64,000 nt of DNA from an uncultured Eubacteriales bacterium (GTDB taxonomy: Bacteria; Bacillota; Clostridia; Christensenellales; Aristaeellaceae): NCBI GenBank assembly GCA_902799465.1, contig CADCAS010000001.1:80055-144054 (forward strand), in the 5' to 3' direction. How positions within the stretch are numbered: position 1 is the stretch's first letter; each line of letters starts with the position of its first letter. A program made the position numbers and the translations under genes. Below, in pieces: positions 39,653 to 57,257 of this stretch. The notes beneath the pieces are model-generated. The model did not search any database. It was not told where the DNA came from and was given only the letters and a program-made list of their open reading frames with translations.

Positions 39653-40036
39653 ATGGAGAACAAGGAAGTAACGGGGCGGGATATTTCCCGTCCCACCGAT
39701 CATCTGGAGCTGGGCGGCGTTGACTATCCGCTGGCCTTCGACCTGGCCTGCATGCGGGTAGCGGAGGACGTTTATGAGGTCCAGTACGGGCGCAACGTGA
39801 ACTTCGCGAACATCGTGATGTATCTGGCGGCGGGCAAGCTGGGCGCCATCATGGCAATCCTCTACGGCGCGCTGCTGTCCGGGGCGAAGGCGCACAAGGT
39901 CGAGCCGCTGACCTGGGAGGAGTTCACGGAGAAGTTCCGGCTGACCAGCATCCCGGCGGTGAAGGAGCTGCTGATGGAGCGGGTAAAGGACGCGCTGCCG
40001 AAGGCGGAGGGCGAGGGTGAAAACCCTCCTCAGTAG
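39653..40036 (+). CDS. tail assembly chaperone (gpG-like)
   Basis: 127 aa, acidic, positioned after the major tail gene. Confidence 0.7.
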   Translation: MENKEVTGRDISRPTDHLELGGVDYPLAFDLACMRVAEDVYEVQYGRNVNFANIVMYLAAGKLGAIMAILYGALLSGAKAHKVEPLTWEEFTEKFRLTSIPAVKELLMERVKDALPKAEGEGENPPQ

Positions 40037-40269
40037 GCCGGGAGGACGACCACACCTTCCCCTGGCTTGAGCTGTATTCCGGGGCGCTGGAGGTGGGAAT
40101 GGACCCGGCAACGTTCTGGGCATCCAGCCCGCGGGCGGTGTTTCTGGTGATTCGGGAAAGGCGACGGAGGACCTCATCCGTCTCGCGCTATGCGCGATCC
40201 ACCTTCCCCAGAGGGGAAGGCAAAGGACGACCGGCGAAGGTGCGGCTGAACAGATTGCCGCACCCGTGA
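40021..40269 (+). CDS. -1 frameshift extension of the tail assembly chaperone (gpT-like); no start codon of its own
   Basis: The -1 frame is open from 40021 (a TGA lies at 40018-20) and overlaps the last 16 nt of the chaperone gene. Hand translation KPSSVGREDDHTFPWLELYSGALEVGMDPATFWASSPRAVFLVI... Confidence 0.6.
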   Translation, partial: KPSSVGREDDHTFPWLELYSGALEVGMDPATFWASSPRAVFLVIRERRRRTSSVSRYARSTFPRGEGKGRPAKVRLNRLPHP

Positions 40270-40280
40270 GGATTGCAGAA

Positions 40281-40317
40281 GGAGGAACGTTTTAAGTGGC
40301 GTTCCTCCATTTTTTTT
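40281..40317 (+). terminator. rho-independent terminator immediately after the chaperone genes
   Basis: GGAGGAACG ... CGTTCCTCC stem, then ATTTTTTTT. Confidence 0.7.
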
Positions 40318-40333
40318 GTAAGGGGGCGATGCT

Positions 40334-41110
40334 GTGATTGTGGGCAGCACGGGCTTTTCTTTTGGCGGCGTGCACAGCCGGGACGACATGGGGCTGATCT
40401 ACGCGGAGAAGGACGGCCACGTCATGATCCCGGAGATCAAGCGCAACGCCTACAGCATCGCCGGCATGAGCGGCACGGTGCTGATGCCCGGCGAGGCCTG
40501 GCAGACGTTCTTTTTGGAGGGAACGCTCTACCCCGCGGAGGAGCCGCGCACGCTGGCGGACGCCCAGGCGCTGCTTCGGGACATCGTTGCCTGGCTGACC
40601 GCCGGGCGGCAGCGGCTGATCTTCGACTATGAGCCGGGGGTCTACTACCTGGCGGAGATCTCCACGGCCAGCAAGTACAGCCTGCGCAACTGGTTCGGCG
40701 GCGAGCTGCCGATCCGGTTCACGGTGCAGCCGTTCGCGTACAGCGTGGAGGAGCGATCGAGCACCGTGGAGACCGCCTCGAGCAGCGCCACGGTCCAGCT
40801 GAACGTCGAGACCGGCCAGAGGGCGCCGCTGAAGCTGACGATCGAAAACACCGGCACGGCAGCCATCACGCGGGTGACGATCCAGGGCATCACTCTGAAG
40901 AACATGAACCTCGCCCACGGGCAGACGCTGGTGATCGACTGCGAGCCGCCCATGGGGGCGACGGTCGGCAATGAGAGCGCCATGCAGTATGCCGCGGCCT
41001 TCGCGCCGGTCATGCTGGACAACGGCGTGAACAGGATCCCGGTATCGCTGTCCTACGGCGGCGGCACGGTGCGGGCGAGGATCACGGCTTCGGCGAGGGG
41101 GCGGTGGTAA
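40334..41110 (+). CDS. distal tail protein (Dit, siphovirus tail family)
   Basis: GTG start; FSFGGVHSRDDMGLIY...GTLYP...IRFTVQPFAYS pattern. Confidence 0.75.
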   Translation: MIVGSTGFSFGGVHSRDDMGLIYAEKDGHVMIPEIKRNAYSIAGMSGTVLMPGEAWQTFFLEGTLYPAEEPRTLADAQALLRDIVAWLTAGRQRLIFDYEPGVYYLAEISTASKYSLRNWFGGELPIRFTVQPFAYSVEERSSTVETASSSATVQLNVETGQRAPLKLTIENTGTAAITRVTIQGITLKNMNLAHGQTLVIDCEPPMGATVGNESAMQYAAAFAPVMLDNGVNRIPVSLSYGGGTVRARITASARGRW

Positions 41111-43285
41111 ATGGAGTATTTGAGCGTTTACGACCAGGACGGCACGATGCTAGCCGTGCTGGATCACGCGGACAAGATCGGCTACGTTCTCAAGCACAAC
41201 GACCTCTGGACGGGGTCGTTTTCGCTGCCCTCCGGAGATCCGGCGAACGCCTTTTGTCAGGCGCACAACCTGGTGCGACTGCCGGACGGGAGCCGGGACA
41301 CGGGCCTCTTCCGGATCGTCGGCATGCCCAGCGGCGAGGAGTCCGCGATGGGCGGCGTGCGCACCTACAACCTGGAACATGTGATGGCCACGCTGCTGGA
41401 CGACGTCCTCTTTGGGTATCACGAGGTGGGCGGCACCGGGGTCAATACCCGGCAGGTGATGGAGTACATCCTGGGAAAGCAGACAGTGCGGCGCTGGCAG
41501 CTGGGCGCGTGCGAGTTCAACGACTACTTCCAGTATCACTTTGAAAACGTGTCGCTGCTGTCGGCGCTGCTTTCATTGGGCGAGGTTTTGACGGAGGAAT
41601 ACACGTGGGACTTCGACACCGACACGACGCCCTGGACGGTGAACCTGCGGCGGGCCGACAGTGCGCCCGGCTGCGGCATCCACTACGGGCGGAATCTGGT
41701 GAGCATCACAAAGACCATGGACGCCTCCGCGCTGGTGACGCGGCTGTATCCGCTGGGATACGGCGAGGGCGTGAACCAGCTGACCATCCGGGACGCGAAC
41801 GGGGGTCTCCCCTACCTCGACGCCGACACCATCGCCACCTGGGGCGTGAAGTGCAGCGTCTGGACGGACACGAGGATCCAGGACGCTCAGACGCTGAAAG
41901 CCCGGGGCCTTCAGGTGCTGGACGGATACAAGAATCCCTACATCACCTATACCGCGAAGGCCATCGACCTGTATCTGATCACCGGCTACAGCTGGGACAA
42001 CTACATGCCCGGCAAGCTGGTCAAGGTGATGGACTCGGAGCACGGGATCGACTTCGACGCGCGGATCGTGGAGATCGGCAAGCGGGACGTGAACGGCGAT
42101 CCCGGCGACATCGAGATCACCATCGCCAACACGCCCAGGGACGCGGCGGATTCTATCAACACGCTGGCGGACCGCGTGGGCATCGGCGAGCTCTACAGCC
42201 AGGGCGCGACGAACCTGTTCGCCATCCCCTTCGCCGACAACGCGGACGAAAACCACCCGGCGAAATTCCGCGTTTACATCCCCGCGGGGATGGTGCGGAT
42301 CAACAAGATGCAGCTGACGTGGCAGCTCCAGCCCTTCCGGGCCTATTCCACCGGCGCGGCTGCCGGCGGCAGCACCACGAAGACCAGCAGCAGCGGCGGC
42401 GGCGGCGCGGTGACGACGCGCACGTCGGACGATGTGCAGCAGACCAGCGAATACGGGGGCAAGACGACCATCACCCAGCCGGAACGCGTGCTGACCGACG
42501 ACATCATCGCCGACCTGGGATGGACGACCGGTCCCTACAAAAACGGCCTGGGCGACCAGGAATACATGGGAAGCACCGACGGCACTGAGCTGACGACCTC
42601 CACGGGCGGCGCACACGCGCACCGGCTGCCGGATCACAGCCACGGCATGAGCCACCACCATCGGGTGGACGCCCACACCCATTCCGTCAACATCGACGCG
42701 GAGGCGGACTGGAATGTCAACATGGTCCATGTGGCGGGCTATACCGGCAACCCGAGCGGCGAGGTCAACACGGGACAGCCCAAGTATCAGGACGATACGA
42801 AGCCCAATACCGACCCGGTGACGGACGCCACGACCTATATGGATGATGGGCATACGCATGATGTGGTCAGGCATGCCCACGGCATGGACCATTTCCACTA
42901 CTTCAAGAGCCTCAAGATCCCGTCATTCGACATTGAGATACCGGACCACAGTCATGCCGTGAAGATACCCGGCCACAACCACACGGTGGACATCCAGCCG
43001 CACACCCACGACGTGACGCTGCCCGACCACGAGCACGGCATCGTGTACGGCATCTATGAAGGCGGCAGGGCCAGCAGCGTGACCATCAACGTGGACGGCG
43101 TGAGCGTTCCCGTCGGCAGCGGCGGCGAGATCGACGTGAGCGGCTACTTATCCAAGGACGACAACGGCAAGATCCGGCGCGGCGCGTGGCACGAGATCCA
43201 GATCGTGCCGGACAGCCTGACGCGCATCGAGGCCAACCTGACCGCGCAGGTTTTTGTGCAGTCGGTCGGCGGGGGCGACTATTGA
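41111..43285 (+). CDS. tail-associated protein (Tal / prophage-tail endopeptidase family) with a His-rich C-terminal region
   Basis: N-terminus MEYLSVYDQDGTMLAVLDHADKIGYVLKHNDLWTGSFSLP is typical of siphovirus Tal. The C-terminus carries at least 9 HxH motifs. Confidence 0.75.
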   Translation: MEYLSVYDQDGTMLAVLDHADKIGYVLKHNDLWTGSFSLPSGDPANAFCQAHNLVRLPDGSRDTGLFRIVGMPSGEESAMGGVRTYNLEHVMATLLDDVLFGYHEVGGTGVNTRQVMEYILGKQTVRRWQLGACEFNDYFQYHFENVSLLSALLSLGEVLTEEYTWDFDTDTTPWTVNLRRADSAPGCGIHYGRNLVSITKTMDASALVTRLYPLGYGEGVNQLTIRDANGGLPYLDADTIATWGVKCSVWTDTRIQDAQTLKARGLQVLDGYKNPYITYTAKAIDLYLITGYSWDNYMPGKLVKVMDSEHGIDFDARIVEIGKRDVNGDPGDIEITIANTPRDAADSINTLADRVGIGELYSQGATNLFAIPFADNADENHPAKFRVYIPAGMVRINKMQLTWQLQPFRAYSTGAAAGGSTTKTSSSGGGGAVTTRTSDDVQQTSEYGGKTTITQPERVLTDDIIADLGWTTGPYKNGLGDQEYMGSTDGTELTTSTGGAHAHRLPDHSHGMSHHHRVDAHTHSVNIDAEADWNVNMVHVAGYTGNPSGEVNTGQPKYQDDTKPNTDPVTDATTYMDDGHTHDVVRHAHGMDHFHYFKSLKIPSFDIEIPDHSHAVKIPGHNHTVDIQPHTHDVTLPDHEHGIVYGIYEGGRASSVTINVDGVSVPVGSGGEIDVSGYLSKDDNGKIRRGAWHEIQIVPDSLTRIEANLTAQVFVQSVGGGDY

Positions 43286-43306
43286 TTGAGAGGAGGACTA
43301 AAGAAC

Positions 43307-46300
43307 ATGGCAGACAATGAGAACAATGGCGTTCAGACTATACACGGTTTGAGCGTGGAGCAGAGCCTGCTGGGCGCCGTGAACGACGCGGCTACCCAGG
43401 AGCCCGACGAGGAATATGAGATCATCGCCGTGGAGGATCTGGAGCGGGTGAAGCTGGGCCGGCAGGGCGAGAACGAGACCCAGACCGTGCGCATCGACTG
43501 CAATGAATGGCTGGTGCAGCTCCAGGGGTGCACCTTCATGGTGGTGGCGCTGCGGCCCGGCGAGACGGAGCTGTACGTGCCGGACATCACGGTTTCCAAC
43601 GGACTGATCACCTGGCCCATCACAGCGCAGGACACCGCCTGCTCCGGCGCGGGCCGGGCGGAGGTGCGCGCGCTCAAGGGCGACGCGGTGAAGAAATCCA
43701 AGCTGTTCCGCACCTGGATCGAGCCCGCCCTGGAGGGCGCCATCGGCACGCCGGTGACCCCGCCCAACTGGGTAAAGGAGACGAAGGAAGCCCTCGACCG
43801 GGCCAACACCCTGATGGCGGACGCGCTGGCGGCTGCCAACGAGGCCAACGAAGCGGCGGAGAACCTGGACGACGAGGTGGCTGCCGCCAAGACCGACGCC
43901 CTGGACGCCATCGCGGCGGCAAAGACTGACGCGCAGGAAGCGGCGGACGCGACGCTTACGGACATCGCGGAGGCCCGCGACGCGGGCCTGGACGCCATTG
44001 ACGCGGCCCAGGCGGCGGCTGTGGCGGACGCTGCGGAGGCCATGAACACGGCGAAGGACGACGCTGTGGCGGCGGGAGAAGCGGCCCTGGAGGCCGCCAA
44101 GGTGGCGAAGCTGGAGGAAATCGCGGAAGCCAAGACCAACGCGGAGCAGATCGCGGCGGCGGCGGTGGAAATCGCCGAGGACGCCAACGCCAACGCCGTG
44201 CAGGCGCTGGAAAAGGCCACCAACGCCGAGAACGATTCCGCGACCTACGCGACGGACATTGACGAGCTGAAGTCTGGGATGCAGCGCTATAACCTGGAGA
44301 GCGGCAGCTACTTCGGCGGCGTATTCCTGGACGAGGACACCAACACGCTGTACTTCACCGACAAAAACGGCAGGGTCATTGCCGAGGTGGAGAACATCGG
44401 ACGCGGCGGCGGCGGCGGCGGTGGCGGCGACGACAGCGGCAGCAACAGCAAGATCCACATGGACAACATCAGCGGCTGGCAGTCCAAGACACTGGCGCGG
44501 AAGAAGGACGAGGCCGTCCCCAGCTGCCCGGTGACGCTGCAGTGGTCGTCCATTGAGAACGAGTTGCCGACCGGCAACGGCACGCTGCGGGTCATGGTCA
44601 ACGACAAGACCGAGGCCATGCTGGAGGTGCAGCAGGGCACTGTGGTGGTGGACGTAGCCGGGTATCTGAAGACCGGCTCCAACATGCTAGACTTCACGGT
44701 ATACGACATCTACGGCAAAAACCGCACCTGCCGCTGCTCGGTGGACGTCAAGGAGATGTACCTGGAGAGCACCCACGACAACACCCAGCCCCAGAAGGGC
44801 GCTTTTGCGTTCGCATACACGCCCTTCGGCAGCGTGCGCAAGCTCGTCCACTTCGAGATGGACGGCACGGAGCTGGGCACCGTGGAGACCTCCGTCAACG
44901 GACACCAGCAGAGCTACACCATCCCGAAGCAGACCCACGGGGCGCATGTGCTGCGCGTGTGGTTTGAGGCTGAGATCAACGGTCAGACGGTTCTGTCCAA
45001 TACGCTGTATTACGAGATCATCTGCATTGACCCGCTGAGCACCGCGCCGATCATCGTCTCCAACTTTGACCGCTCCACCGTGTCCCAGTATGAGACGCTG
45101 ACCATTGAATACAACGTCTATGACCCCATGCGCCTGGAAGCGCCGGTCACCATCGACGTGGACGGGACTCAGGTCGCGAGCCTGACCGCCAGCCGCGAGA
45201 CGCAGACCTTCACCTACCGGGTGAGCCGCGCCGGAGCGCTGGCCATCGCCATCAAGAGCGGCGAGACTACAAAGACCCTTGACCTGACGGTGACCGAGTC
45301 CGACGTGCACCCGGAGGCCGTGACCGACCAGCTGAGCCTGTACCTGGACGCCGCAGGCCGCAGCAATTCCGAAACCAACCCGGCAGTGTGGGAATACGGC
45401 AGTGGCGCGAGCAAGATCGCGGCGACGTTTACCGGCTACAACTGGACGCGGGACGGCTGGCTGCTGGATGAGAACGCCCTGACCTGCCTGCGCACGATGG
45501 GCGGCGGCAAGGTGACAATCCCCGCGCTGGTCTACGGCAGGGACTTCCGCTCCAGCGGCAAGACCATTGAAATTGAGTTCAAGAGCCACAACGTGCTGGA
45601 TTACGACAGCCCCATCATCAGCTGCATGAGCGGCAACAGGGGCTTTGAAATCTATGCCGACCACGCGGTATTCAAGAGCGCCCGCGCAGAGGTGAGCACC
45701 CGGTTCGCTACTGACAAGCGGATCCGGCTGACGCTGGCCGTGGAGCCTCAAAACGACTACCGGCTGGTATACCTGTACATCGACGGTATATATCAGAGCA
45801 TTTCCCAGTACTCCACCACCGACAGCTTCCAGCAGGCGGAGCCCGTGGGCATCACCGTGGGCGACAATGCCCGCTGCGGCGTGGACTTGTACAACGTTCG
45901 CGTGTATGACCGCTATCTGACCGGCGACGAGGTGCTCATGAACTACATCGCCGATCGGCAGGACGCCTTCGAGATGCTGGAGCTGTACCAGCGCAACGAC
46001 ATCTACGAAAACGGCCAGATCGCCATCAGCAGGCTGCCGAAAGACCTGCCCTACGCCGTTTTGACCGGCCCGGAGTCCCCGCAGTACAAGGGCGACAAAA
46101 AGACTGTGAGCATGGTCTACGACGAGCCCGCCAACAGCGCACGGCACCTGGTGGCCCAGGGCGTGGTCGTGAACGTGCAGGGCACCAGCTCCCAGTATTA
46201 CGCTGTCAAGAATCTGAAGATCACCTTCAAGGAAGGTGCGACGGTGAACGGGCGGCTGGTGATGGGCTTCACCATCCGGGACGGCAGCATCATGGTGGAC

Positions 46301-49300
46301 ACGTTTACACTGAAGGCGGACGTGGCCTCCTCGGAGAGCGCCAACAACATTGTGCTGGCGAAGCTGTTTGACGACCTGTCCCAGGAGCTGGGCATCCTGA
46401 CCCCGCCCCAGAAAAAGAACCGGGCCGTGCGGCAGGGCATGGACGGCTTCCCCTGTGCTGTGTTCTGGGATTATGGCGACGGCCCCGTGTTCATCGGCAA
46501 GTACAACTTCAACAACGACAAGGGTACCCCGGAAACCTTCGGCTTTGCGGATGGTGACGAGGTGTGGGACGTGCGCAACTTCGACAGCCAGCTTTCCAAG
46601 TTCCGCACGAACGTGTTCGGCGACAGCTGGACGGACGATTATGAGTCCATCTTCCCGGAGGACTACTTCGACAGCACCCGGCTGCAGGCCATGACGGACT
46701 TCATCTACGGCACCTGGCAGGAGAACGCCAGCGGTAACGCGCTGCCGGAGGCCGTGACCTATGATGGCGTGAGCTACGACCACGACACCGCCGCCTACCG
46801 CCTGGCGAAATTCAAGGCCGAGTACGGCGACTGGTATGACCTGGACAATGCGGCGTTTTTCTACGTGTTCACGCTGGTCATGCTGCTGGCGGACAACCGG
46901 CAGAAAAACGAGCACCTGGCCTGGTATGACGATATCAAAAGGTGGTGGGAGCTGCCCTACGACTTTGACACCGCGCTGGGCACCGACAACCTGGGCCGAC
47001 TGACCTTTGAATACTGGATGGAGGATATTGACCAGGTCGGCGGCAAGAACATCTTCAACGGCCAGGACAACGTGAAATGGCAGAACTACCGGCAGGCGTT
47101 CTGGGCTCGCTGCTGCGCTATGTATCAGCGGATGCGCTCTACCGGCAAGTTTTCGGCGGAGTACATCGCCACACTTATCGACGTCTGGCAGGGAAGCTGG
47201 CCGGAGGCCATGTGGAACGAGGATGGCGAGTACAAGTACACCAACCCGCTGCGCAGGGACGGCATCACCACCTATCTGTCCATGGCGCTGGGCAGCAAGA
47301 AAGGCCAGCGCTACGACTTCCTGGTGTGGCGGTTTGCCTACTGTGACAGCCTGTTTGACGCGGGTGACGCGCTCCAGACCATCATGTTCCGGCCCTACTT
47401 CCACATCACGGAGGCGCAGCGGGCCAGCGGCGACTACGACGTGACGGTGGAACTCTACAAAAAGGGCTACGTCAAGCTGCTGTGGGACGACACCGCCACG
47501 GGCGAGCGCCTGGTGGGCAACACGCTGACCTGCCAGTGCGAGAACCCCTACACGGACGCCAACCAGGCCGTGTGCAACCTGCACAGCGCCAAGATGATAA
47601 AGGACATCCGGGGCCTCGAAAAGCTGAACGTGCAGTATTTTGACGGCTCCAAGGCCGAGAACCTCCAGGCCATCCGACTGGGCAGCCAGGAGGAGGGCTA
47701 CGTCAACGAAATGACCACCGAGGTATCGGCGGGCGCGAACAGGAAGCTGACTCTGGTCGAGCTGACCGGGTGCGTGAACTTCGGCACCGGCGACCAGAAG
47801 GTGCTGACGCTGACCCAGTGCCCGAACCTGGAAAAGGTCTACGCGACCCGGACGGCGCTCCAGGGCGTTGACCTGCCCAACGGCGGCGTGCTGAACACGC
47901 TGAAGCTGCCTGCGACCACCAGCAGCCTGGTGATCCGCAACCAGCCCCGGCTGACGGACGCGAACCTGACGCTGGCGGGCTGGGACAACATCGACCAGCT
48001 CTGGCTTGAGAACATGAGCGGCCTGGACACCAAGGCCATATTCAACCGGGTGCCCGTGGGCACCGCCGTGCGCATTACGGGCTTCACCTGGGAGGTGACC
48101 GGCGCAGCGGAAATTGACACCATCATGGACAGGCTGGACACCATGCGCGGTATCAGCATCAACGGCCAGGGGCAGAGCGAGGAAGTGGACGACGCGCAGA
48201 TGAGCGGCACCATTCACGCCAGCGCCCTGCGCGGCGACGACATCGCCCGGTGGAAGGAGCGCTATCCCACCATCAACGTGACTGCCGACCACACCTCCTC
48301 CACCAAGACCTTCAAGAGCTGGGACGGTTCTACGACCGTGGGGACGGTGGAGTATGCCGACGGCAGGCCCGTGACGGCGCTGCCGAGTGTCCCGGCGAGG
48401 ACGGAGACCGCCCAGTACACCTTCACGGCGGTGGGCTGGAATACTGCGGAGGACGCCCAGACCGCGAACTTTGACGCGAGCACCGTCAACGACAGCGACC
48501 TGACCCTGTATGCCGCTTACAGCCGCACGGTGCGCAGTTATCCCATCACCTGGGCCAACGACGACAACAGCCAGCTGGACAGCGAGACCTACCAGTACGG
48601 CCAGCGGCCCAGCTATAAGAAGGGCACGCCTGTGAGCGCGGTGGACAGCAGCAGGCCGTTCGTGTCCTGGACGCCCACCATTGTGGATGTGACCGGGCCT
48701 GCGACCTACAAGGCGAGCTACATTCCGATTTACACCGCGACCTTCGTGAGGGCTGCGGAGGACGGCGGCGGGACGCTGGGAACCAAGAATTACCAGGACG
48801 GCCAGACGGTGACGGACGACGGCATCACGACGCCCACCAGCACCCGCGAGGGTTACACCTTCAGCGGGTGGACGCCTGCCCTGGGTGTGATCCACGCGAA
48901 CACGACCTACACGGCGAAGTTCAAAGCGCCCAGCGACGCCCCGACGGCGACCACTGCCGACGGCGCTTATGGCGTGGAGTGGGACTACAACGCCAGCGCC
49001 ACCACGCTGACCAGGAAGGGCCTTGCGGCGAGCTTCAGCAACCCGACGCCCGCCACGGCGGTGGACGGCAGCGGCTCCTCGCCCTTTGACACCATCGCGC
49101 CCTGGAAGGACATGAAGCGCTTCAACGTCGTGAGAGGCGCGGCGTCTGATTCGCAGAATCAGCCGTCCGCGGTTTCCGGCGACGCCGGAAACTCGGAATC
49201 CCAAGGGGATTCCGACCTTTGGACGCTGGTGCCCGACACCGACGCGAGCTTCGACGAGGCCGCCAACGACACGGTGGTGTACATCCCCGAGTTCTACTAC

Positions 49301-50095
49301 ACCGCCTACAAGGACACGACCAACAAGAAGTGGCTGTGGGCCATCAGCCCGACTCAGCTTCCGGGCTACAAGAAACACCCCGGCAGCGGCTGCTATGTGG
49401 GCCGCTTCCACACCGGCGGCGACAGCTCTGCGGTGTATTCCAAGGGCGGCGTGGCCCCGCTGGTGAGCACCACCCGCGCCAACTTCCGCACCTACAGCAA
49501 GGCCAAGGGCAACGGCTGGCACCAGATCGACCTGGCCACCTGGTCCGCCATCCAGCTGCTCTACCTGGTGGAGTTTGCCAACTGGCACAGCCAGGACCAG
49601 CTGGGCACCGGCCAGAATACCGGCAGCATCAAGGCCACCGGCGCGACCACCGGCGCAGTCTACCACACCCTCAAGCGCAGCGGCGCCAGCAACATGTACC
49701 GCTGGATCGAGAATCCGTTCAGCAATGTGCTGACGTGGGTGGACGGCTTTGTGGCCAACAACCGGGCGGCCTATGTCAGCACCGACATGGCCAGCTACGG
49801 CGAGAGCACCAGCGGCATGGAGGCCGCGGGCATCACGCTGCCCAGCAGCGAGATGATCACCGGCCTGGGCTACAGCGAGAAATGCGCCTGGGCGTTTATC
49901 CCGGACACCGCAAGCGGCGGCAGCGCGACCACTTATGTCACTGACCGCGTGTACTCCGACGCCGGCGTGCGGCTGGTGGCCGTTGGCGGCAACTACTACT
50001 CCAACGACCACTGTGGCGTGTTCTACTTCGGCGCGGATTGGAGCGTCGCCGGAGCCAGCGCCAGCCTGGGCTCCCGTCTCCTTTATAAGCCCTGA
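43307..50095 (+). CDS. giant tail fibre / receptor-binding protein (2262 aa), DGR target with a C-type-lectin-fold C-terminus
   Basis: GAGGAGGA RBS. Ala-rich coiled coil, poly-Gly hinge, LamG-like, LRR-like and Listeria-Bacteroides-type repeats. C-terminal ...GGNYYSNDHCGVFYFGADW... carries the VR. Confidence 0.88.
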   Translation: MADNENNGVQTIHGLSVEQSLLGAVNDAATQEPDEEYEIIAVEDLERVKLGRQGENETQTVRIDCNEWLVQLQGCTFMVVALRPGETELYVPDITVSNGLITWPITAQDTACSGAGRAEVRALKGDAVKKSKLFRTWIEPALEGAIGTPVTPPNWVKETKEALDRANTLMADALAAANEANEAAENLDDEVAAAKTDALDAIAAAKTDAQEAADATLTDIAEARDAGLDAIDAAQAAAVADAAEAMNTAKDDAVAAGEAALEAAKVAKLEEIAEAKTNAEQIAAAAVEIAEDANANAVQALEKATNAENDSATYATDIDELKSGMQRYNLESGSYFGGVFLDEDTNTLYFTDKNGRVIAEVENIGRGGGGGGGGDDSGSNSKIHMDNISGWQSKTLARKKDEAVPSCPVTLQWSSIENELPTGNGTLRVMVNDKTEAMLEVQQGTVVVDVAGYLKTGSNMLDFTVYDIYGKNRTCRCSVDVKEMYLESTHDNTQPQKGAFAFAYTPFGSVRKLVHFEMDGTELGTVETSVNGHQQSYTIPKQTHGAHVLRVWFEAEINGQTVLSNTLYYEIICIDPLSTAPIIVSNFDRSTVSQYETLTIEYNVYDPMRLEAPVTIDVDGTQVASLTASRETQTFTYRVSRAGALAIAIKSGETTKTLDLTVTESDVHPEAVTDQLSLYLDAAGRSNSETNPAVWEYGSGASKIAATFTGYNWTRDGWLLDENALTCLRTMGGGKVTIPALVYGRDFRSSGKTIEIEFKSHNVLDYDSPIISCMSGNRGFEIYADHAVFKSARAEVSTRFATDKRIRLTLAVEPQNDYRLVYLYIDGIYQSISQYSTTDSFQQAEPVGITVGDNARCGVDLYNVRVYDRYLTGDEVLMNYIADRQDAFEMLELYQRNDIYENGQIAISRLPKDLPYAVLTGPESPQYKGDKKTVSMVYDEPANSARHLVAQGVVVNVQGTSSQYYAVKNLKITFKEGATVNGRLVMGFTIRDGSIMVDTFTLKADVASSESANNIVLAKLFDDLSQELGILTPPQKKNRAVRQGMDGFPCAVFWDYGDGPVFIGKYNFNNDKGTPETFGFADGDEVWDVRNFDSQLSKFRTNVFGDSWTDDYESIFPEDYFDSTRLQAMTDFIYGTWQENASGNALPEAVTYDGVSYDHDTAAYRLAKFKAEYGDWYDLDNAAFFYVFTLVMLLADNRQKNEHLAWYDDIKRWWELPYDFDTALGTDNLGRLTFEYWMEDIDQVGGKNIFNGQDNVKWQNYRQAFWARCCAMYQRMRSTGKFSAEYIATLIDVWQGSWPEAMWNEDGEYKYTNPLRRDGITTYLSMALGSKKGQRYDFLVWRFAYCDSLFDAGDALQTIMFRPYFHITEAQRASGDYDVTVELYKKGYVKLLWDDTATGERLVGNTLTCQCENPYTDANQAVCNLHSAKMIKDIRGLEKLNVQYFDGSKAENLQAIRLGSQEEGYVNEMTTEVSAGANRKLTLVELTGCVNFGTGDQKVLTLTQCPNLEKVYATRTALQGVDLPNGGVLNTLKLPATTSSLVIRNQPRLTDANLTLAGWDNIDQLWLENMSGLDTKAIFNRVPVGTAVRITGFTWEVTGAAEIDTIMDRLDTMRGISINGQGQSEEVDDAQMSGTIHASALRGDDIARWKERYPTINVTADHTSSTKTFKSWDGSTTVGTVEYADGRPVTALPSVPARTETAQYTFTAVGWNTAEDAQTANFDASTVNDSDLTLYAAYSRTVRSYPITWANDDNSQLDSETYQYGQRPSYKKGTPVSAVDSSRPFVSWTPTIVDVTGPATYKASYIPIYTATFVRAAEDGGGTLGTKNYQDGQTVTDDGITTPTSTREGYTFSGWTPALGVIHANTTYTAKFKAPSDAPTATTADGAYGVEWDYNASATTLTRKGLAASFSNPTPATAVDGSGSSPFDTIAPWKDMKRFNVVRGAASDSQNQPSAVSGDAGNSESQGDSDLWTLVPDTDASFDEAANDTVVYIPEFYYTAYKDTTNKKWLWAISPTQLPGYKKHPGSGCYVGRFHTGGDSSAVYSKGGVAPLVSTTRANFRTYSKAKGNGWHQIDLATWSAIQLLYLVEFANWHSQDQLGTGQNTGSIKATGATTGAVYHTLKRSGASNMYRWIENPFSNVLTWVDGFVANNRAAYVSTDMASYGESTSGMEAAGITLPSSEMITGLGYSEKCAWAFIPDTASGGSATTYVTDRVYSDAGVRLVAVGGNYYSNDHCGVFYFGADWSVAGASASLGSRLLYKP
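49944..50083 (+). repeat. DGR variable repeat (VR)
   Basis: 140-nt match to 50214-50353 with 17 mismatches, all opposite TR adenines. Confidence 0.9.
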
Positions 50096-50102
50096 CGGGG
50101 GA

Positions 50103-50122
50103 CCGGGGGCCGCAGCCCCCGG
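50103..50122 (+). promoter_or_regulatory. GC hairpin 8 nt downstream of the VR gene stop (DGR target-recognition-type element)
   Basis: CCGGGGGC-CGCA-GCCCCCGG: 8-bp GC stem, 4-nt loop. Confidence 0.6.
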
Positions 50123-50213
50123 AAACGTGGCCCAGCTACAGAGAGGATGATTGCTATGAAGTAGCAGCTTAATAAAAGGGATTACCCATGCAGTGGGCCA
50201 GGCTATGCGTTTC

Positions 50214-50353
50214 ACCGCGTGAACTCCAACACCGGCGTGCAGCTGGTGGCCGTTGGCGGCAACTACAACTCCAACGACAACTATGGCGTGTTCTACTTCA
50301 ACGCGAATTGGAACGTCACCGAAACCAACGCCAACCTGGGCTCCCGTCACCTT
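50214..50353 (+). repeat. DGR template repeat (TR), noncoding
   Basis: A-rich (AAC-codon-rich in VR register) invariant copy. Bracketed by the inverted repeat ATTACCCATGCA (50181-92) / TGCATGGGTAAT (50378-89). Confidence 0.9.
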
Positions 50354-50380
50354 GTTTAATGATCCATGTTTTAGCATTGC

Positions 50381-50590
50381 ATGGGTAATTCCGCAGCACT
50401 CGCTGAAAATTCTACCGACAGGACGGGGTTTAGTAGGACGGGGCCGGACTTTGAGTCTGGCCCCGTTTCGGACGACCCCGAGGTAAACAAGGAGGCATTA
50501 GAGCTGGCGCTGAACGGCATCGAGACGGACGACGGGCAGCTGGAGAGAGCAGAGGAACAATTCAGGAAAGACGTGGAAGGATGGTGCTAA
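50381..50590 (+). CDS. doubtful small acidic ORF
   Basis: The only in-frame ATG sits inside the TR-flanking inverted repeat. The first half has non-coding-like codon usage and crosses a hairpin (50441-50465). The second half looks coding and follows an AAGGAGG at 50489. Confidence 0.25.
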   Translation: MGNSAALAENSTDRTGFSRTGPDFESGPVSDDPEVNKEALELALNGIETDDGQLERAEEQFRKDVEGWC

Positions 50591-51630
50591 GGATGAAAGC
50601 GGTGGAAAGACTGATCGCAACGGCTGAAGCGGAGCTCGGCTACCTGGAGAAAAAGAGCAATAAGGACCTGGACAGCAAGACGGCCAACGCCGGCAGCGCG
50701 AATTATACGAAGTATAACCGCGACCTGAAGAACTGGACCGGCGTGGGCAGCCTGAGCGCCCAGTGGTGCCAGGCGTTTGTGGACTGGTTATTTATTATGG
50801 CCTTCGGCGTGGAAGTTGCGAAGAAGCTGCTGGGCAAATTCACCAACTACACACCCACCGGGTCCGACGCCTTCAAGAAGCGGGACGCCTACATCAAGCG
50901 GGGCAAGGGAAAGCCGAAGCGCGGCGACGTGATTTATTTTTACTCCAGCGCGAAGGGCAGGATCGGCCACGTGGGCATCGTGACGGATGTCACCAGCTCC
51001 AAGGTGTACACCATCGAAGGCAACACCAGCGGGGCCAGCAGCCTGGTGACGAACGGCGGCGGCGTCAAAAAGAAGAGTTACAGCCTGTCCAGCACCTACA
51101 TCGACGGCTATGGCAGCGTGGATTATTCCGTGGTGGACGGTCTGGACTTCAAGGCCCCGGAAGTGGTGGCCGTGAAGCTGGGCGACCGGCTGCTGAAGAA
51201 CGGCAGCGAGGGCGACGACGTGAAAGAGCTCCAGGCGGCGCTGATCGGCCTGGGCTTCAGCTGCGGCAGCTATGGCGCGGACGGCGAATATGGGGATTGC
51301 ACTGAGATGGCCGTACGGGCCTTCCAGGCGGCCCACGGCTGCGAAGTCGATGGAGAATATGGCCCGGAGACGCACGCGGCCCTGGAGGCCGCCGTGGACG
51401 CCCAGAGCGCCGGAGCGGACCCGGAGGCCGCCCAGTATGTGCAAATTGAAAAGGGTAAAAAGTGCTACATAAGGACCGGCCCCGGCACGGAGAACAAGGC
51501 CCTGGGCGTGGCGCACAGCCTGGACAAGCTGCAATACGCGGGCGAGACCGCGGAAAACGGCTGGCACCGGGTCAAGTACGGGAACGGGCTGGCCTGGGTA
51601 TCCGGCAAGTACGGGAAGCTGGTGGCGTGA
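50581..51630 (+). CDS. endolysin (CHAP/NlpC-P60-type amidase + PG_binding_1 + SH3-like)
   Basis: QWCQAFVDW (catalytic Cys context), GHVGIV...IEGNT, LKNGSEGDDVKELQAAL, and C-terminal SH3-like GWHRVKYGNGLAWV. Confidence 0.88.
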   Translation: MVLRMKAVERLIATAEAELGYLEKKSNKDLDSKTANAGSANYTKYNRDLKNWTGVGSLSAQWCQAFVDWLFIMAFGVEVAKKLLGKFTNYTPTGSDAFKKRDAYIKRGKGKPKRGDVIYFYSSAKGRIGHVGIVTDVTSSKVYTIEGNTSGASSLVTNGGGVKKKSYSLSSTYIDGYGSVDYSVVDGLDFKAPEVVAVKLGDRLLKNGSEGDDVKELQAALIGLGFSCGSYGADGEYGDCTEMAVRAFQAAHGCEVDGEYGPETHAALEAAVDAQSAGADPEAAQYVQIEKGKKCYIRTGPGTENKALGVAHSLDKLQYAGETAENGWHRVKYGNGLAWVSGKYGKLVA

Positions 51631-51776
51631 TGCAGCGGGAAATATTGGTGGCCGTGGCCTGGGCGGACCTGATCCTATGCGAAGTCGGCAAAATCCTGGC
51701 CATGGTGATCCCCGCGGCGCTGATTGGAGCGCTGGCGGCGCTGGTGTTTGAGTATCAGCGGAGAAAGCGGAGGTGA
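51630..51776 (+). CDS. small membrane protein (lysis accessory?)
   Basis: 48 aa with one TM helix and a basic tail RRKRR; its ATG overlaps the endolysin stop. Confidence 0.4.
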   Translation: MQREILVAVAWADLILCEVGKILAMVIPAALIGALAALVFEYQRRKRR

Positions 51777-51833
51777 TGGCCTATGAGGGGATAGAGCCAT
51801 GGGCGACCATAAAACAAAAGGGAGGAATAGAAA

Positions 51834-52274
51834 ATGGATAAGGTATGGTCCGAGGTAGTGAAGATCATGGCCGCAGGCGTGGGCATCATCGCCGGATTCT
51901 ATGGCGGATGGACGCCGGGCAGTCGGGTGCTGGTGGTGCTGATGGTGGTGGACTACATCACCGGCCTGGCCTGCGCCCTGACCGGGCACAGCACAAAGAC
52001 CGAAAGCGGCCACTTTTGGTCGCAGGTGGCCTTTGTGGGATTGCTCAAAAAGGGCGTTATTATGCTGGTCATCCTGGTGGCCGCGCAGCTGGACGGCGTG
52101 ATTAACGGCGGCGAGGGCGTGACCCTGTTCCGGTCCGCCGCTGAATTTTTCTATATTGCCAGTGAGGGCCTGTCCATCGTGGAGAACGCGGGTCTCCTGG
52201 GTGTGCCCGTGCCCAAGGGCATCAAGCAGGCCCTGGAGGCGCTACGGGATAAGAACGACAAGGACAAAGACTAA
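51834..52274 (+). CDS. holin (phage_holin_4-like)
   Basis: 146 aa, 3-4 TM helices, charged C-terminus; VVDYITG...FYIASEGLSIVENAGLLG. Confidence 0.85.
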   Translation: MDKVWSEVVKIMAAGVGIIAGFYGGWTPGSRVLVVLMVVDYITGLACALTGHSTKTESGHFWSQVAFVGLLKKGVIMLVILVAAQLDGVINGGEGVTLFRSAAEFFYIASEGLSIVENAGLLGVPVPKGIKQALEALRDKNDKDKD

Positions 52275-52285
52275 CCAAACAAGCG

Positions 52286-52315
52286 GCGCTCATCCGAAAG
52301 GGTGGGCGCTTTTTT
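52286..52315 (+). terminator. rho-independent terminator after the holin gene
   Basis: GCGCTCATCC-GAAA-GGGTGGGCGC (with G-U pairs), then TTTTTT. Confidence 0.6.
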
Positions 52316-52342
52316 CTGTTTTAGAAGAAAGGGGGGATAGCT

Positions 52343-55300
52343 GTGCCGAACAACAGCGAGGGCATCGGAACGAAAGTAAGCGTTAAGGGCGATAAAGAGT
52401 ATAAAAGCGCATTACAGCAAATCAGCAGGCAGCTGACCGTTCTTAATACCGACATGAAGGCCAGCCAATCCGCTTTTGGTGCCCAGGCTGAGACCATGGA
52501 CGGTATGCACGACCGCCTGGAAAAACTCAATGAAATATATGAGGTCCAGGCGAAAAAGGTGGAGCTGATCCGGGAACAGCTGGAGAAGGCCAAGGCGGAA
52601 TACGGCGAGAACAGCAAGCAGGCGGATGATCTGCAAATTGCCCTGAACAAGGCCACGGCGCAGATGAACGGGACGGCGAACCAGATCACCACCACGGAAC
52701 AGGGTCTGAAGACGCTGGCGGACGCCCAGCATCTGGCCGGGGACGCGACGGACGCTTCCTCGATGACCTTGAAAGAGGCGGAGCAGGCACTGAAGAACGC
52801 CGGCGAGGGCGCTGAGGAGATGGCCGGTTCTGTGGGCGACGCCGGGGACGCCGCGGGCGAGGTCGGCGACGCCGCAGAGGACGCCAGCGGCGGCGTGGGC
52901 AGCTTTGCAGAGTCGCTGCTGGAGGCGGCAGGGGCCGTGGGCGGCGGCTTCCTGGACGGCGTGCAGGGGCTTCTGGGCGCGCTGGGCAGCATTGGCGGGG
53001 CGTGCGTGGAGGCGCTGGGCGAGGCGTTTGACCTGGCAAAGGACGCGGGCAAGTATGCCGACGATCTGCTGACGCTGTCGAGCCAGGTGGGCGTGGACAC
53101 AGACAAGCTCCAGCAGTGGCAGTATGCCAGCAACTTCATCGACACGTCGGTGGAAACGATCACCGGAAGCATGACGAAGCTGACGAAGAAGATGGACTCC
53201 GCGCAGGAGGAGGAGAAGAAGAACGCGGAGAAGTGGCAGGAGCACCTGGACAAGATCGCGCGGGGCGAGAAGGACACCTGGAGCGAGGTCACCACGGCCC
53301 GGGACGCCTTTGTGAAGCTGGGTGTTTCCTGGAAGGACTACAACGGCAACCTGCGCGACAACGAGGAGGTCTTCATGGACCTCATCGACGCGCTGGGGAA
53401 GGTCGAGAATCCGGTGGAGCGCGACGCGCTGGCCATGGAGCTGTTCGGCAAGAGCGCCAAGGAGCTCAATCCGCTGATCGAGGCCGGCAGCCGCGCTTGG
53501 CGGGAGATGGGCCAGGAAGCGGAGGCCATGGGGACGGTGTTCTCCGAGGGGAACCTCGAGATCATGGGCGGCTTCGACGACACCATGCAGATGTTCAACG
53601 CCACGGCGGACGCCATGAAGAAGACCATCGGGCTCAAGATGATCCCGATGTTCGAGCCGCTGGTGCAGGCCGCGGGCCAGAGCATGGGCAGGCTGTCGAA
53701 GGCGCTCCAGGACGGGGCGAGCCCGACGGAGCTGGCCGGTGTGCTGGACGAGGTCGCGAACAGCCTGATCGACGAGCTGACGGTGACGTTCGTGCGGCTG
53801 GACGAGATGGTGCCGGAGGCGGTGAAGGTCATTTCGCAGGTGATCAGCCATGTGGCCGAAGCGCTGCCGGAGCTGGCGCGGGTGGCGCTGCCGGGGGCGA
53901 TGAAGCTGTTGCAGGCGGTGCTGGATGGGCTGTTGCAGATCACCGGGCCGCTGGCCACGCTGGCCACGGAGCTGGTGACCACGGTGGCGGGGTTTCTGAT
54001 CGACAACCTGCCGGACATCGTGGACGCGGGCACGGATCTGTTGCTGGGGCTGGTGGACGGTATCGTGGACGCGCTTCCGGAGCTGATCCCGGCGGCGGTC
54101 GAGATGGTGGTGAAGCTGGCGGAAGGGCTGATTCAGGCCATCCCGAAGTTAGTGGAAAAGCTGCCGGAGATCGTTGATGCCATCTGGGACGGTCTGGTGA
54201 ACACGGACTGGCCGGGACTGGGCAGTGAGGTGCTGAGCTCGATCTGGGGCACGCTGGGAGCGCTGGGCGACGACCTGCTGGGGATCTTCACGGACGCCAT
54301 CACGAACATCACCGGTCTGGACTTCGCCTCCATCGGCAGCGGCATCCAGAGTGCCATCGAGGGCATTCTGGGGTCGGACGGCAGCTTCCTGTCGGGGCTG
54401 TTTTCCGACGCGCACGACGACATCGAGGGAATCGACTGGGACAAGCTGGGCGAGAACGTCGGGAAGGCCGGTTCGGCGCTGGTGAATATGACCGGCGAGG
54501 CGCTGGCGGGCGGCTTTGAGGCCGGTTATGCGCTGATCGAGAATATCGAATGGGGCAAGCTGGGTGAGACGGTCGGCAACATCGCCAACGGGCTGGTGAA
54601 TCTGACCGGCGAGGTGGCTGCGGCGGGCTTCGAGGCAGCGCACGGGCTGATCGAGGGGCTGGACTGGGAAGGCCTGGGCAAGACCGTGGGCGACGTGGGC
54701 AACGGGTTGGTGAACCTGACCGGCGAGGTCGCCGCGCAGGGGTTCCAGAACGCGCACGATCTGATCGAAAATATCGACTGGAGCGGGCTGACGGACACGC
54801 TGGCGGCGGTGCCGAACGGGCTGATCGAGCTGTCCGGCGACCTGATCGCGCAGGGTTTCCGGAATGGGCACGACCTGATCGAGAAGATCAACTGGGGCGG
54901 TCTGACGGACACGCTGGCAGCGGTGCCCAACGGTCTGATCGAGCTGAGCGGCGAGACGCTCTCCGGGGCGTTCTCGGCGGCCTATGACATCATCAGCGAC
55001 ATTCCCTGGGACGAGCTGGGGAACGAAGTCGCGGACGGCCTGGGGCGCGCCTGGGGCATCGTCAGCGGCGTTGGCGACGTGGCGCTGGGCTTGGGCGAGG
55101 GCGCGGTGATGGCCGGTCAGCAGGGCGTCGGGGCGCTGAAGGACTGGATCGCTTCATGGCGGGACGACGGCGAGGTGGAGAGCGAGGCCACGGCCGTCGG
55201 CGCGCAGGTGATCACCGACGTGGGCACCGGCGTAACCAACGAGGTGCCGCAGCTGGAGACCACCGCGCAGGAGGCCGCGGACGCGCTGCTGACGGCGATC

Positions 55301-55963
55301 CGGAATGTACTGACAGAGTCGACGGTGGAGCAGATCGGCAAGGATCTGGACGAGGACGTCTGGACCGGCGTGGTGCTGGGCGAGGACGAGCTCTTGCAGG
55401 TCGTGGCCGGGGTTGCCGGGGATTCCTTTGACGAGCTCAGGGACGCCGTGGAGGACGCCGGGTTTGCCGAGATCGGCCGGCAGATGGACAACGGGATTGT
55501 TTCAGGCATTTACGAGAACAGCCGGTACATCAAGGAGGCGGCCAGGGCGGCGGCGCAGGCGGCTTACAATGCCGCGAAGAGCGAGCTGGGGATCGCCAGC
55601 CCGTCCAAGAAGGGCGGATGGTTGGGCGAGATGTTCGACCTGGGCTTCGCCGGTGGATTGATCGACAACGCCGATGAGATCGAGAGCGCCATGGGGTATC
55701 TCAATGAGCTGACCACTGCGGAGGCTGAGCCGGTGATGGTCGGAGGGCCGATGCAGCGAGGGTTTGCTGGATTTGAGATCGATTACGGGCAGATGCGGGA
55801 GGCTTTCATTGAGGCCATCGAGGAGACCGGTGTGGGCAATATGGTGATGCAGATGGATAAGGAAGTCGTCGGCGAAACGCTGGAGCCGGTCACCAGCAGG
55901 GCCACCCGGCAGCGGCAGCAGAGGTATGTCAAGGGCAGGACGGCAAGGCTGGTGATAGGATGA
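52343..55963 (+). CDS. tail tape-measure protein (1206 aa), in a non-canonical position
   Basis: GTG start behind AAAGGGGGG. N-terminal coiled coil. TMP core LQQWQYASNFIDTS..., ALAMELFGKSAKELNPLIEAG. 38-aa tandem repeats. Confidence 0.85.
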   Translation: MPNNSEGIGTKVSVKGDKEYKSALQQISRQLTVLNTDMKASQSAFGAQAETMDGMHDRLEKLNEIYEVQAKKVELIREQLEKAKAEYGENSKQADDLQIALNKATAQMNGTANQITTTEQGLKTLADAQHLAGDATDASSMTLKEAEQALKNAGEGAEEMAGSVGDAGDAAGEVGDAAEDASGGVGSFAESLLEAAGAVGGGFLDGVQGLLGALGSIGGACVEALGEAFDLAKDAGKYADDLLTLSSQVGVDTDKLQQWQYASNFIDTSVETITGSMTKLTKKMDSAQEEEKKNAEKWQEHLDKIARGEKDTWSEVTTARDAFVKLGVSWKDYNGNLRDNEEVFMDLIDALGKVENPVERDALAMELFGKSAKELNPLIEAGSRAWREMGQEAEAMGTVFSEGNLEIMGGFDDTMQMFNATADAMKKTIGLKMIPMFEPLVQAAGQSMGRLSKALQDGASPTELAGVLDEVANSLIDELTVTFVRLDEMVPEAVKVISQVISHVAEALPELARVALPGAMKLLQAVLDGLLQITGPLATLATELVTTVAGFLIDNLPDIVDAGTDLLLGLVDGIVDALPELIPAAVEMVVKLAEGLIQAIPKLVEKLPEIVDAIWDGLVNTDWPGLGSEVLSSIWGTLGALGDDLLGIFTDAITNITGLDFASIGSGIQSAIEGILGSDGSFLSGLFSDAHDDIEGIDWDKLGENVGKAGSALVNMTGEALAGGFEAGYALIENIEWGKLGETVGNIANGLVNLTGEVAAAGFEAAHGLIEGLDWEGLGKTVGDVGNGLVNLTGEVAAQGFQNAHDLIENIDWSGLTDTLAAVPNGLIELSGDLIAQGFRNGHDLIEKINWGGLTDTLAAVPNGLIELSGETLSGAFSAAYDIISDIPWDELGNEVADGLGRAWGIVSGVGDVALGLGEGAVMAGQQGVGALKDWIASWRDDGEVESEATAVGAQVITDVGTGVTNEVPQLETTAQEAADALLTAIRNVLTESTVEQIGKDLDEDVWTGVVLGEDELLQVVAGVAGDSFDELRDAVEDAGFAEIGRQMDNGIVSGIYENSRYIKEAARAAAQAAYNAAKSELGIASPSKKGGWLGEMFDLGFAGGLIDNADEIESAMGYLNELTTAEAEPVMVGGPMQRGFAGFEIDYGQMREAFIEAIEETGVGNMVMQMDKEVVGETLEPVTSRATRQRQQRYVKGRTARLVIG
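54420..55045 (+). repeat. about six tandem 114-bp (38-aa) repeats inside the tape-measure gene
   Basis: Unit I(D/E)W(D/G/E/S)xLGxxVGxxxNGLVNLTGExxAxGFxxxHxLIE, repeated with decreasing identity. Confidence 0.8.
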
Positions 55964-56250
55964 TGTCTGGGGATGAGAAGGTGATATTGGCTGCGGCCGT
56001 AGAACGATACGGCGAGGGCGCGCAGCTGGTCAAGTGCTGCGAAGAGTTGAGCGAGCTGGCGCATGCGATCTGCAAGCGGTTCGATGTGTCTGTGGGGTAT
56101 GAGCGCGATGGCGAGGAGGTCGTCGAGGAGATCGCCGATGTCGAGATCATGCTGGAGCAGCTGCGCGTGATCCTCCGCGTGGATCCGGAGATGGAGCAGC
56201 GATGGCGGGAGAGGAAGCTGAACAGGCTGCGGAGGCGGCTGGGTGTATAG
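55960..56250 (+). CDS. MazG-like nucleotide pyrophosphohydrolase domain protein
   Basis: EELSELAHAICK ... EEIADVEIMLEQL pattern; ATGA overlap with the TMP stop. Confidence 0.5.
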   Translation: MMSGDEKVILAAAVERYGEGAQLVKCCEELSELAHAICKRFDVSVGYERDGEEVVEEIADVEIMLEQLRVILRVDPEMEQRWRERKLNRLRRRLGV

Positions 56251-56254
56251 ACGT

Positions 56255-56289
56255 GGGAGGAAGGTCGTGTGGCCTTCCTCCCGCTTTTT
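56255..56289 (+). terminator. rho-independent terminator at the end of the rightward prophage genes
   Basis: GGGAGGAAGG ... CCTTCCTCCC perfect 10-bp stem, then GCTTTTT. Confidence 0.75.
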
Positions 56290-56677
56290 GTTTGGGGTGG
56301 CGAGCGACGGCCGGCCGGCTGACAATGGCGCAGGTGTGGGGCACTGGTGGCCTGTGAGATGGGTGTGGCGCGCCGGCCGGCTGCTATTGTTTGGCGCGAA
56401 GCGCCAGGGCTTTTCTCCTCGGCGCGCATGCGCTCGGGGTTTTTCTTTCGCCAGAAATCGCCGATTGTGAGGGGTGCGGGTGACACGGTGTGGGGAAAGC
56501 GGTCGACTTTGGAGGATTCTTTCCGCTGCCGATTATGATGGCGATGGGCCAGGTGCGAGGACGATGAGGGGTATCCCGGCCCGGGTCGGAAGTTGGAAAG
56601 GCCTCTCCCCTACACCGGGCGCATCCTAACCCTTTACAGCGTAGGACTTTGAAAAAACAGGGCGGGGCTATTCTTGA

Positions 56678-56951: not shown

Positions 56952-56994
56952 TTCGGGACCAAAAGGTCGCAGGTTCAAATCCTGTCACCTCGAC
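56952..56994 (+). repeat. attR of the prophage, doubling as the left att of the tandem element (tRNA-Pro 3' remnant)
   Basis: Exact 43-bp copy of 17565-17607. Confidence 0.92.
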
Positions 56995-57145
56995 CACCCC
57001 AAAAAGCCTTGAAAACACAGCGTTTTCGGGCTTTTTTCTTATTGCTGAAAGCACCAGTTTCCCTAAAATTGCCCTAACCAGCATTGAAATGAGCCTCAGC
57101 GTGATTAATACAGGGTGCTACATATGGAAGATTTCACATCAAATA

Positions 57146-57212: not shown

Positions 57213-57257
57213 CAGATAATACAAATCCTGCAGGCGACGCCTACAGGATGCGTTTAT

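Follow-up and report, generated by a model that had tools for sequence, protein, structure and literature searches.

The canonical siphovirus tail module, known from lambda (V-G/GT-H-M-L...), SPP1, HK97 and TP901-1, runs from the major tail gene through the chaperone pair G/GT to the tape measure protein (TMP) gene and on to Dit and Tal. The series major tail-G/GT-TMP is among the most conserved synteny of long-tailed phages and is routinely used to annotate the TMP and its chaperone, and it is a common assumption that the adjacency of the two benefits stoichiometry or chaperoning during translation. Here we describe a prophage in which this order is broken. It lies in a stretch of 64,000 nucleotides (nt) from an uncultured Eubacteriales bacterium (contig CADCAS010000001.1, positions 80,055 to 144,054; hereafter the window), is 39.4 kb long and is integrated in tRNA-Pro. 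From the tail on, its genes read major tail, G/GT, hairpin, Dit, Tal, fibre, remnant of a diversity-generating retroelement (DGR), endolysin, holin, hairpin, TMP, MazG-like gene and attR (Table 1). With only the MazG-like gene between it and attR, the TMP lies ~12 kb away from the canonical slot. All of these parts are ordinary members of known families, and the unusual point is the position of the TMP.

The displaced gene is identified as a TMP by matches to more than 20 PHROG tape-measure families, including phrog_58 (8e-40) and phrog_5493 (7e-37). It can be aligned with canonical-position TMPs from amino acid (aa) 6 to the C terminus and keeps the C-terminal GRT.R.V motif found in them. The best-conserved block of the TMP alignment is the LFGKSAKELNPLIEAG core, and Tandem Repeats Finder detects a period of 114 nt at 54478-54954, corresponding to about four copies of a 38-aa repeat. 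No second TMP or remnant of one was found in the window by tblastn with this TMP and with that of a canonical relative. A first-pass annotation of this DNA had described an intact TMP of 1206 aa with these repeats and this core, the only one of the prophage, lying behind the holin, penultimate before attR (the exact 43-nt att repeats were located) and downstream of at least two terminator-like hairpins that would have to be read through, and all of this holds, coordinates included. The place between G/GT and Dit, where a TMP would be sought by position, is only 64 nt long and mostly occupied by a hairpin with its T-run, a finding about the position of the TMP and not about its function. The displaced gene has its own GTG start preceded by the ribosome-binding site (RBS) GGGGG. 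A likeness of the RBS-GTG region between Dit and TMP, and a TAA before the Dit RBS, were considered as breakpoint marks and dropped, as relatives do not share them.

The relatives used below are metagenomic contigs and metagenome-assembled genomes (MAGs) from independent assemblies, with loci labelled L001 and so on. They bear first on the reality of the two junctions. The source of the window is itself a metagenome-assembled contig, with hairpins and repeats at the junctions, which would suit an artefact in which both junctions arose from contig misjoins at repeats. Against this, L042 (a metagenomic contig of 92% nt identity) is collinear with the window from the end of the chaperone through T extension, hairpin and Dit to the start of Tal, while L001 (a 14.9-kb ENA contig, 99.99% identical) extends from fibre and lysin past holin, TMP, MazG and attR into the adjoining element. 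Both junctions are found in independent assemblies at 92-100% identity and again at 55-77%, and their sequences differ between diverged relatives though the junctions recur. The genes also abut cleanly, with an RBS at each junction. We therefore regard an assembly artefact as a practically negligible explanation.

In the relatives sharing the displaced order, the TMP is 45-72% and Dit 57-77% identical to the window's, and two contigs carry both junctions. ERZ28614072 scaffold_2346 (L052 and L045; Dit 77%, TMP 65% identical) reads HNH-terS-TerL-portal-...-major tail-chaperone-Dit-Tal-...-lysin-holin-(gp10-like)-TMP-MazG-like on one contig, and ERZ28654966 scaffold_1002 (L053 and L047; Dit 67%, TMP 53%) reads major tail-chaperone-Dit-Tal-fibre-reverse transcriptase (RT)-lysin-holin-TMP. 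The rumen-type MAG contigs L054 and L048 are two halves of the scaffold_1002 order, its proteins recurring in them. L055 and L057 have major tail-chaperone-Dit-Tal with no TMP between, and the holin is followed by the TMP in L005 to L008, L058 and L050. The TMP at L049 (45% identity) has host genes after it and no chaperone gene before it. L049 excepted, all other relatives with a TMP of at most 45% identity (dozens of loci) have the canonical order major tail-chaperone-TMP(-Dit-Tal). The phage genome collection contains no close relative, the best TMP identity there being 44%, to unannotated faecal contigs with the canonical order.

The displaced TMPs form one clade in a neighbour-joining tree (1120 columns) in 200/200 bootstraps, or in 191/200 when the L049 protein (P0009) is counted in, and their sister clade is canonical. 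Their open reading frames (ORFs) are full-length, at 1089-1276 aa, and dN/dS within the clade spans 0.30-0.51 in pairs with dS of 0.3-0.8, which indicates purifying selection. The displaced order is thus a heritable trait of an entire clade of phages from gut and rumen Clostridia, and the simplest reading is that a single relocation in an ancestor was followed by long divergence under selection. The clade consists of temperate HK97-like siphoviruses (HNH-terS-TerL, ClpP-type protease) infecting uncultured spore-forming Clostridia.

These results go against the proposal of the first-pass annotation that the TMP was moved by an internal translocation in this prophage. A recent private event, maybe tied to loss of the DGR RT and leaving a rearranged, perhaps defective element, would account for an order unlike that of many canonical relatives and for a window copy without RT. 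It is nevertheless very improbable, given that the same order is found down to 45% TMP and 57% Dit identity in many samples, that the displaced TMPs are monophyletic and constrained, and that the divergence of the relatives rules out copies of one recent element. The comparison of synteny with relatives, which that annotation had called for, makes the displaced order a lineage trait, an outcome it had itself named as speaking against its proposal; the order is still non-canonical.

The suggestion that the same event might have removed the DGR RT is not supported either. The variable repeat (VR) at the fibre C terminus and the template repeat (TR) are identical at 123 of 140 positions, and each of the 17 mismatches is at an adenine of TR. 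The window has no RT gene between TR and endolysin, and no RVT_1 match was obtained among the window ORFs scanned, a subset of all ORFs. Displaced-TMP relatives have at this place, between TR and endolysin, a gene of 361-404 aa with weak RVT_1 matches that stay under the Pfam cut-off and span nearly the whole model. Precisely this 1.2 kb is missing from the window, between 50502 and 50503. Because the RT-like gene is kept in L047, L050, L055 and L058, the loss of the RT is a later, separate and clean deletion, unrelated to the displacement of the TMP. Compared with the BPP-1-type fibre-targeting DGRs (survey PMC5758913), the remnant is alike in its fibre C-terminal VR, in a TR just downstream and in differences confined to adenines, whereas the window copy has no RT gene and is unable to diversify on its own.

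The chaperone genes have remained in their usual place, directly after the major tail gene and followed by the hairpin and then Dit, with the TMP not next. Their family match is weak (phrog_2115 'tail protein', 5e-4; no Pfam match). The T extension is open in the -1 frame to the TGA at 40267-40269, and the slippery heptamer A_AAC_CCT, of the classical X_XXY_YYZ form, sits just past a -1-frame TGA and two codons ahead of the G stop. The AAACCCT heptamer is conserved in displaced and canonical relatives alike, with GGGCCCT in L051, and the T extension is conserved across the displaced relatives. Conservation of both heptamer and extension shows that the chaperone has been kept despite its distance from the TMP. 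G and GT attach to the TMP and bring in the tube protein (PMC5009743).

Three terminator-like hairpins in the window, each with a GC-rich stem and a T-run, have energies of -20 to -28 kcal/mol and z scores of -4.2 to -5.8. The one after GT is ancestral and not a scar of the rearrangement, because the corresponding site between GT and TMP is also occupied by a T-run hairpin in the canonical relatives L051, L014, L027 and L018; the displaced L052 has no hairpin after GT. In canonical relatives this hairpin lies ~30 nt from the TMP start, and TMP, Dit, Tal, fibre and lysis genes are all downstream of it, so late transcription must cross such structures. This position upstream of essential co-oriented genes argues that the hairpins are probably leaky.

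A hairpin also stands directly before the TMP RBS in every displaced locus having both holin and TMP, and in L045 it precedes a gp10-like/TMP pair. Variable moron-type inserts of 0.4-1.1 kb separate the holin from this hairpin in displaced relatives, while the distance from the T-run to the TMP start is only ~26-35 nt. A gap of at most 35 nt leaves no room for a promoter after the hairpin, and the TMP mRNA must therefore cross a terminator-like structure. A sigma-70 scan, which is blind to phage sigma-like late promoters, found no plus-strand promoter near the TMP. L047 has at ~9400-9450, in its holin-TMP moron region, a perfect TTGACA-17-TATAAT reading toward small ORFs and the pre-TMP hairpin.

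A conserved order could also mean that the TMP and the MazG-like gene form a transcription unit of their own, served by a late promoter for a phage sigma-like factor. Ahead of HNH and terS the prophage encodes a sigma-factor-like regulator that may activate late genes, and since it is present, late promoters may not resemble sigma-70 sites and would escape the scan; a hairpin separates holin and TMP in all relatives, and the consensus promoter of L047 points the same way. A promoter would, however, have to lie upstream of the hairpin, given the ~26-35 nt that follow it, and its transcripts would still cross the structure. Nor was any recurring sequence noticed upstream of the late genes, by eye and with no motif search run. 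We consider a separate unit unlikely.

Our preferred explanation is that the order is stable and inherited and that the displaced TMP is a functional ruler, expressed by read-through and chaperoned in trans, and we give it a probability of about 0.72. The TMP gene, together with its RBS, would have been excised from the slot between GT and Dit in a clade ancestor and reinserted after the holin terminator, before the MazG-like gene. This would be equivalent to a swap of the adjacent blocks [TMP] and [Dit-Tal-fibre-lysis] with three breakpoints, all intergenic, and may have proceeded through unequal exchange between genome copies, giving a duplication followed by loss of the redundant copies. 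The displaced TMP would then be the phage's only tail-length ruler and the last structural gene of a long rightward late operon, transcribed by read-through or antitermination of the post-holin hairpin and translated from its own GGGGG RBS and GTG start. G and GT, made 12 kb upstream, would bind it in trans.

Several observations weigh against this explanation. The PF10145 match to the TMP reaches 26.8 bits, under the cut-off of 33.2, the TMP of L057 was not seen, and L001 may share its source sample with the window. A late promoter for a phage sigma-like factor, missed by the sigma-70 scan, could lie in or upstream of the holin gene. The two gene orders are not separated by Dit identity (63% in the canonical L056, 57% in the displaced L057), which suggests that tail-tip genes have been exchanged between backbones, and mosaic exchange, or more than one event, is possible. 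Some copies are decayed: the window is without the DGR RT, L004 has a Dit-lysin fusion and the TMP of L050 is frameshifted. Finally, the clade is represented by metagenomic contigs and MAGs only, and its members are only presumed to form virions.

Some of these points would also fit a TMP-like gene that is not a ruler, either as a TMP-derived moron or effector or because the elements are defective or satellite-like and borrow a helper's TMP. The gene lies at the prophage end among moron-type genes (MazG; a methylase in L050), a terminator-like hairpin precedes it, L004 and L050 are decayed, and TMP-derived effectors are known in contractile injection systems according to one report (PMC13277306). 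This explanation is improbable, as the gene is the sole TMP homologue in an otherwise complete tail module and is collinear over its full length with canonical TMPs, including the GRT.R.V motif and the 38-aa repeats. G/GT and its frameshift, which are known to serve the handling of the TMP (PMC5009743), are conserved too, and this also speaks for a functional ruler.

The region between GT and TMP receives large inserts in canonical relatives, namely a 4-kb DGR cassette (L061, L066) and 2.2 kb (L062, L063), which shows that this phage group does not depend on strict adjacency. The insert at L061 6119-9314, also seen in L066, is a complete DGR comprising a 416-aa target with a C-terminal VR, an Avd-like ORF, a TR and a 511-aa RT. 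The TMP of L061 has about eight copies of the 38-aa repeat.

A further feature of these phages is a family of palindromes. The window has five copies of the perfect 22-bp palindrome AAAGCGTCAGCGCTGACGCTTT, with 0 expected by chance. In relatives, members of the family stand at gene boundaries (upstream of terS, terL/portal, protease/capsid, capsid/connector, Tal/fibre), and in the canonical L051, L067, L056 and L060 one is also found at GT/TMP, the left breakpoint. In genomes with multiple copies the boundary copies are identical or one base apart, and the palindrome sequence differs between genomes. The palindrome may act in attenuation, protein binding or recombination. Gene blocks may have been relocated at these dispersed, genome-specific palindromic hairpins, the displaced TMP being one outcome of such cassette shuffling, but we hold this only as a tentative and rather doubtful idea. 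Neither junction of the displaced lineage has a family palindrome, unrelated hairpins being present there, and the link of the palindromes to the move of the TMP is a circumstantial hypothesis.

L015 (IMGVR_UViG_2799112448_000002) has at 7179-13899 a Dit-Tal block that separates TerL from portal; intergenic joins are tight, and a palindrome of the family marks the TerL/Dit junction. The blocks of L015 are collinear with L057 at 74-82% nt identity. This is a second, different tail-gene relocation in the same phage group. If cassette shuffling is real, it would also cover this block and the DGR between GT and TMP of L061, and the phage group would be a natural test of which tail-gene adjacencies are required.

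Mosaicism like that of the tail-tip genes is seen when the phage of L052 and L045 is compared with window 31693-55963. From TerL through the major tail protein aa identity is 77-99%, with most proteins at 89-99%, and it is 65-77% for chaperone G, Dit, Tal, holin and TMP, 60% for the fibre N terminus and 89% for the MazG-like protein, so that a sharp mosaic boundary separates the major tail gene from the chaperone gene. This phage has two HK97-gp10-like genes, one in the head-tail connector region and an additional one (PF04883; L045 9573-9986, the same as L052 19997-20410) immediately before its displaced TMP, and an 844-aa GH2 glycosidase replaces the giant fibre. Scanning genome contigs with the TMP led to one locus only, the 3.3-kb L004 (rumen MAG RUG10934 contig 197). 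There, at 1000-1665, Dit at about codon 42 is fused to the endolysin at about codon 162, without Tal, fibre or DGR, and the chaperone lies 1.4 kb from the TMP. L004 is either a decayed prophage or a collapsed assembly.

Table 1. Features of the prophage and their positions in the window
Feature	Position	Strand	Basis or remark
attL	17565-17607		Exact 43-nt repeat with attR; tRNA-Pro 3' end
Integrase of prophage	17767-19125	-	
22-bp palindrome AAAGCGTCAGCGCTGACGCTTT	Starts 25322, 30182, 30504, 30804, 36065 (36065-36086)		
Sigma-factor-like regulator	29706-30197	+	phrog_36 1e-9, phrog_351 2e-5
Major tail (tube) protein	39017-39640	+	phrog_88 4e-40; PF04630
Chaperone G with -1 T extension	39653-40269	+	G = 39653-40036; directly after major tail gene
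Slippery heptamer A_AAC_CCT	40021-40027	+	Classical X_XXY_YYZ form
Terminator-like hairpin with T-run, GT|Dit	40281-40317	+	Stem 40281-40308, -21.1 kcal/mol, z -5.5
Dit	40334-41110	+	GTG start; phrog_33 5e-20; 100 homologues
Tal (Prophage_tail)	41111-43285	+	PF06605 1e-31, above its cut-off
Tail fibre, 2269 aa	43286-50095	+	phrog_5302 tail protein; VR at C terminus
VR	49944-50083		Fibre C terminus
TR	50214-50353	+	VR/TR alignment
Deletion scar, ~1.2 kb, DGR RT lost	50502/50503		Collinear blastn with L050, L047, L058
Endolysin	50581-51630	+	CHAP + PG_binding_1 + SH3_3
Holin (Phage_holin_4_1)	51834-52274	+	PF05105 1e-32
Terminator-like hairpin with T-run, holin|TMP RBS	52285-52316	+	Stem 52285-52310, -20 kcal/mol, z -4.2
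TMP	52343-55963	+	1206 aa, GTG start; phrog_58 8e-40
MazG-like NTP pyrophosphohydrolase	55960-56250	+	phrog_2245 2e-23
Strongest terminator-like hairpin, rightward operon end after MazG-like gene	56253-56290	+	56253-56284, -28.3 kcal/mol
attR	56952-56994	+	Exact 43-nt copy of tRNA-Pro 3' end

The late region runs rightward through HNH, terS, TerL, portal, ClpP-type protease, capsid, connectors and major tail into the genes described above. Dit and Tal are adjacent and are both recognised by family homology, and in the window, L005 and L045 the TMP stop and the MazG-like start share an ATGA. Directly upstream of HNH and terS, at 30536-30594, five direct copies of ATGTGAA and one ATGTGAG (30547) follow each other with ~10-bp spacing, and AT-rich DNA comes next. 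The array may serve in terminase binding (cos) or in the regulation of a late promoter. Directly to the right of attR, a second integrative element (56995-64000) lies in tandem at the same tRNA-Pro site. It has an integrase (57258-58481, minus strand), a helix-turn-helix repressor-like gene, a primase-like gene (59205-59744) and an AAA_25 gene (59731-60846), and its GC content is 45-55% compared to 62% for the prophage. The tandem of prophage and second element is also present in L001.

Adjacency of G/GT and TMP appears to be dispensable in this clade, because it keeps an intact G/GT frameshift with its only TMP 12 kb away, behind lysis genes and a hairpin. The clade may therefore serve as a natural system in which to test chaperoning in trans and the control of TMP dosage. 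Annotation pipelines based on position will miss or mislabel the TMP here and may flag such prophages as defective.

Like the canonical module, the window has a tube protein, a G/GT pair with a -1 frameshift, one long repeat-bearing TMP, Dit and a Prophage_tail Tal, with all tail genes on one strand in one late operon. It differs in the place of the TMP, 12 kb further downstream and beyond fibre, DGR remnant, endolysin, holin and hairpin, and in the translational coupling of this gene to the MazG-like gene. The closest canonical relatives found are L051 (a GCA_037194045.1 contig), L056, L060, L014, L067 (IMG/VR 3300029590_000019), MT836202 and MT837222. Compared to the window, they are 72-81% identical in TerL, 66-71% in the major tail protein, 51-58% in the chaperone, 39-43% in the TMP, 43-64% in Dit and ~60% in Tal. 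They share the slippery site and the hairpin after GT, read major tail-G/GT-hairpin-TMP-Dit-Tal, and their TMPs form the sister clade. The literature searched contains no description of a TMP behind the lysis cassette, which is not proof of novelty. Actinobacteriophages of Cluster O have an HNH gene between chaperone and tmp (PMC4351075), and Microbacterium phages of Cluster EI have inserts between major tail and tmp (PMC7302621). These phages resemble the group described here in that the chaperone-TMP neighbourhood tolerates inserts, as it does in the canonical relatives L061 and L062, but they differ in that one or a few genes are inserted and the TMP still lies ahead of the minor tail genes, not behind the lysis cassette.

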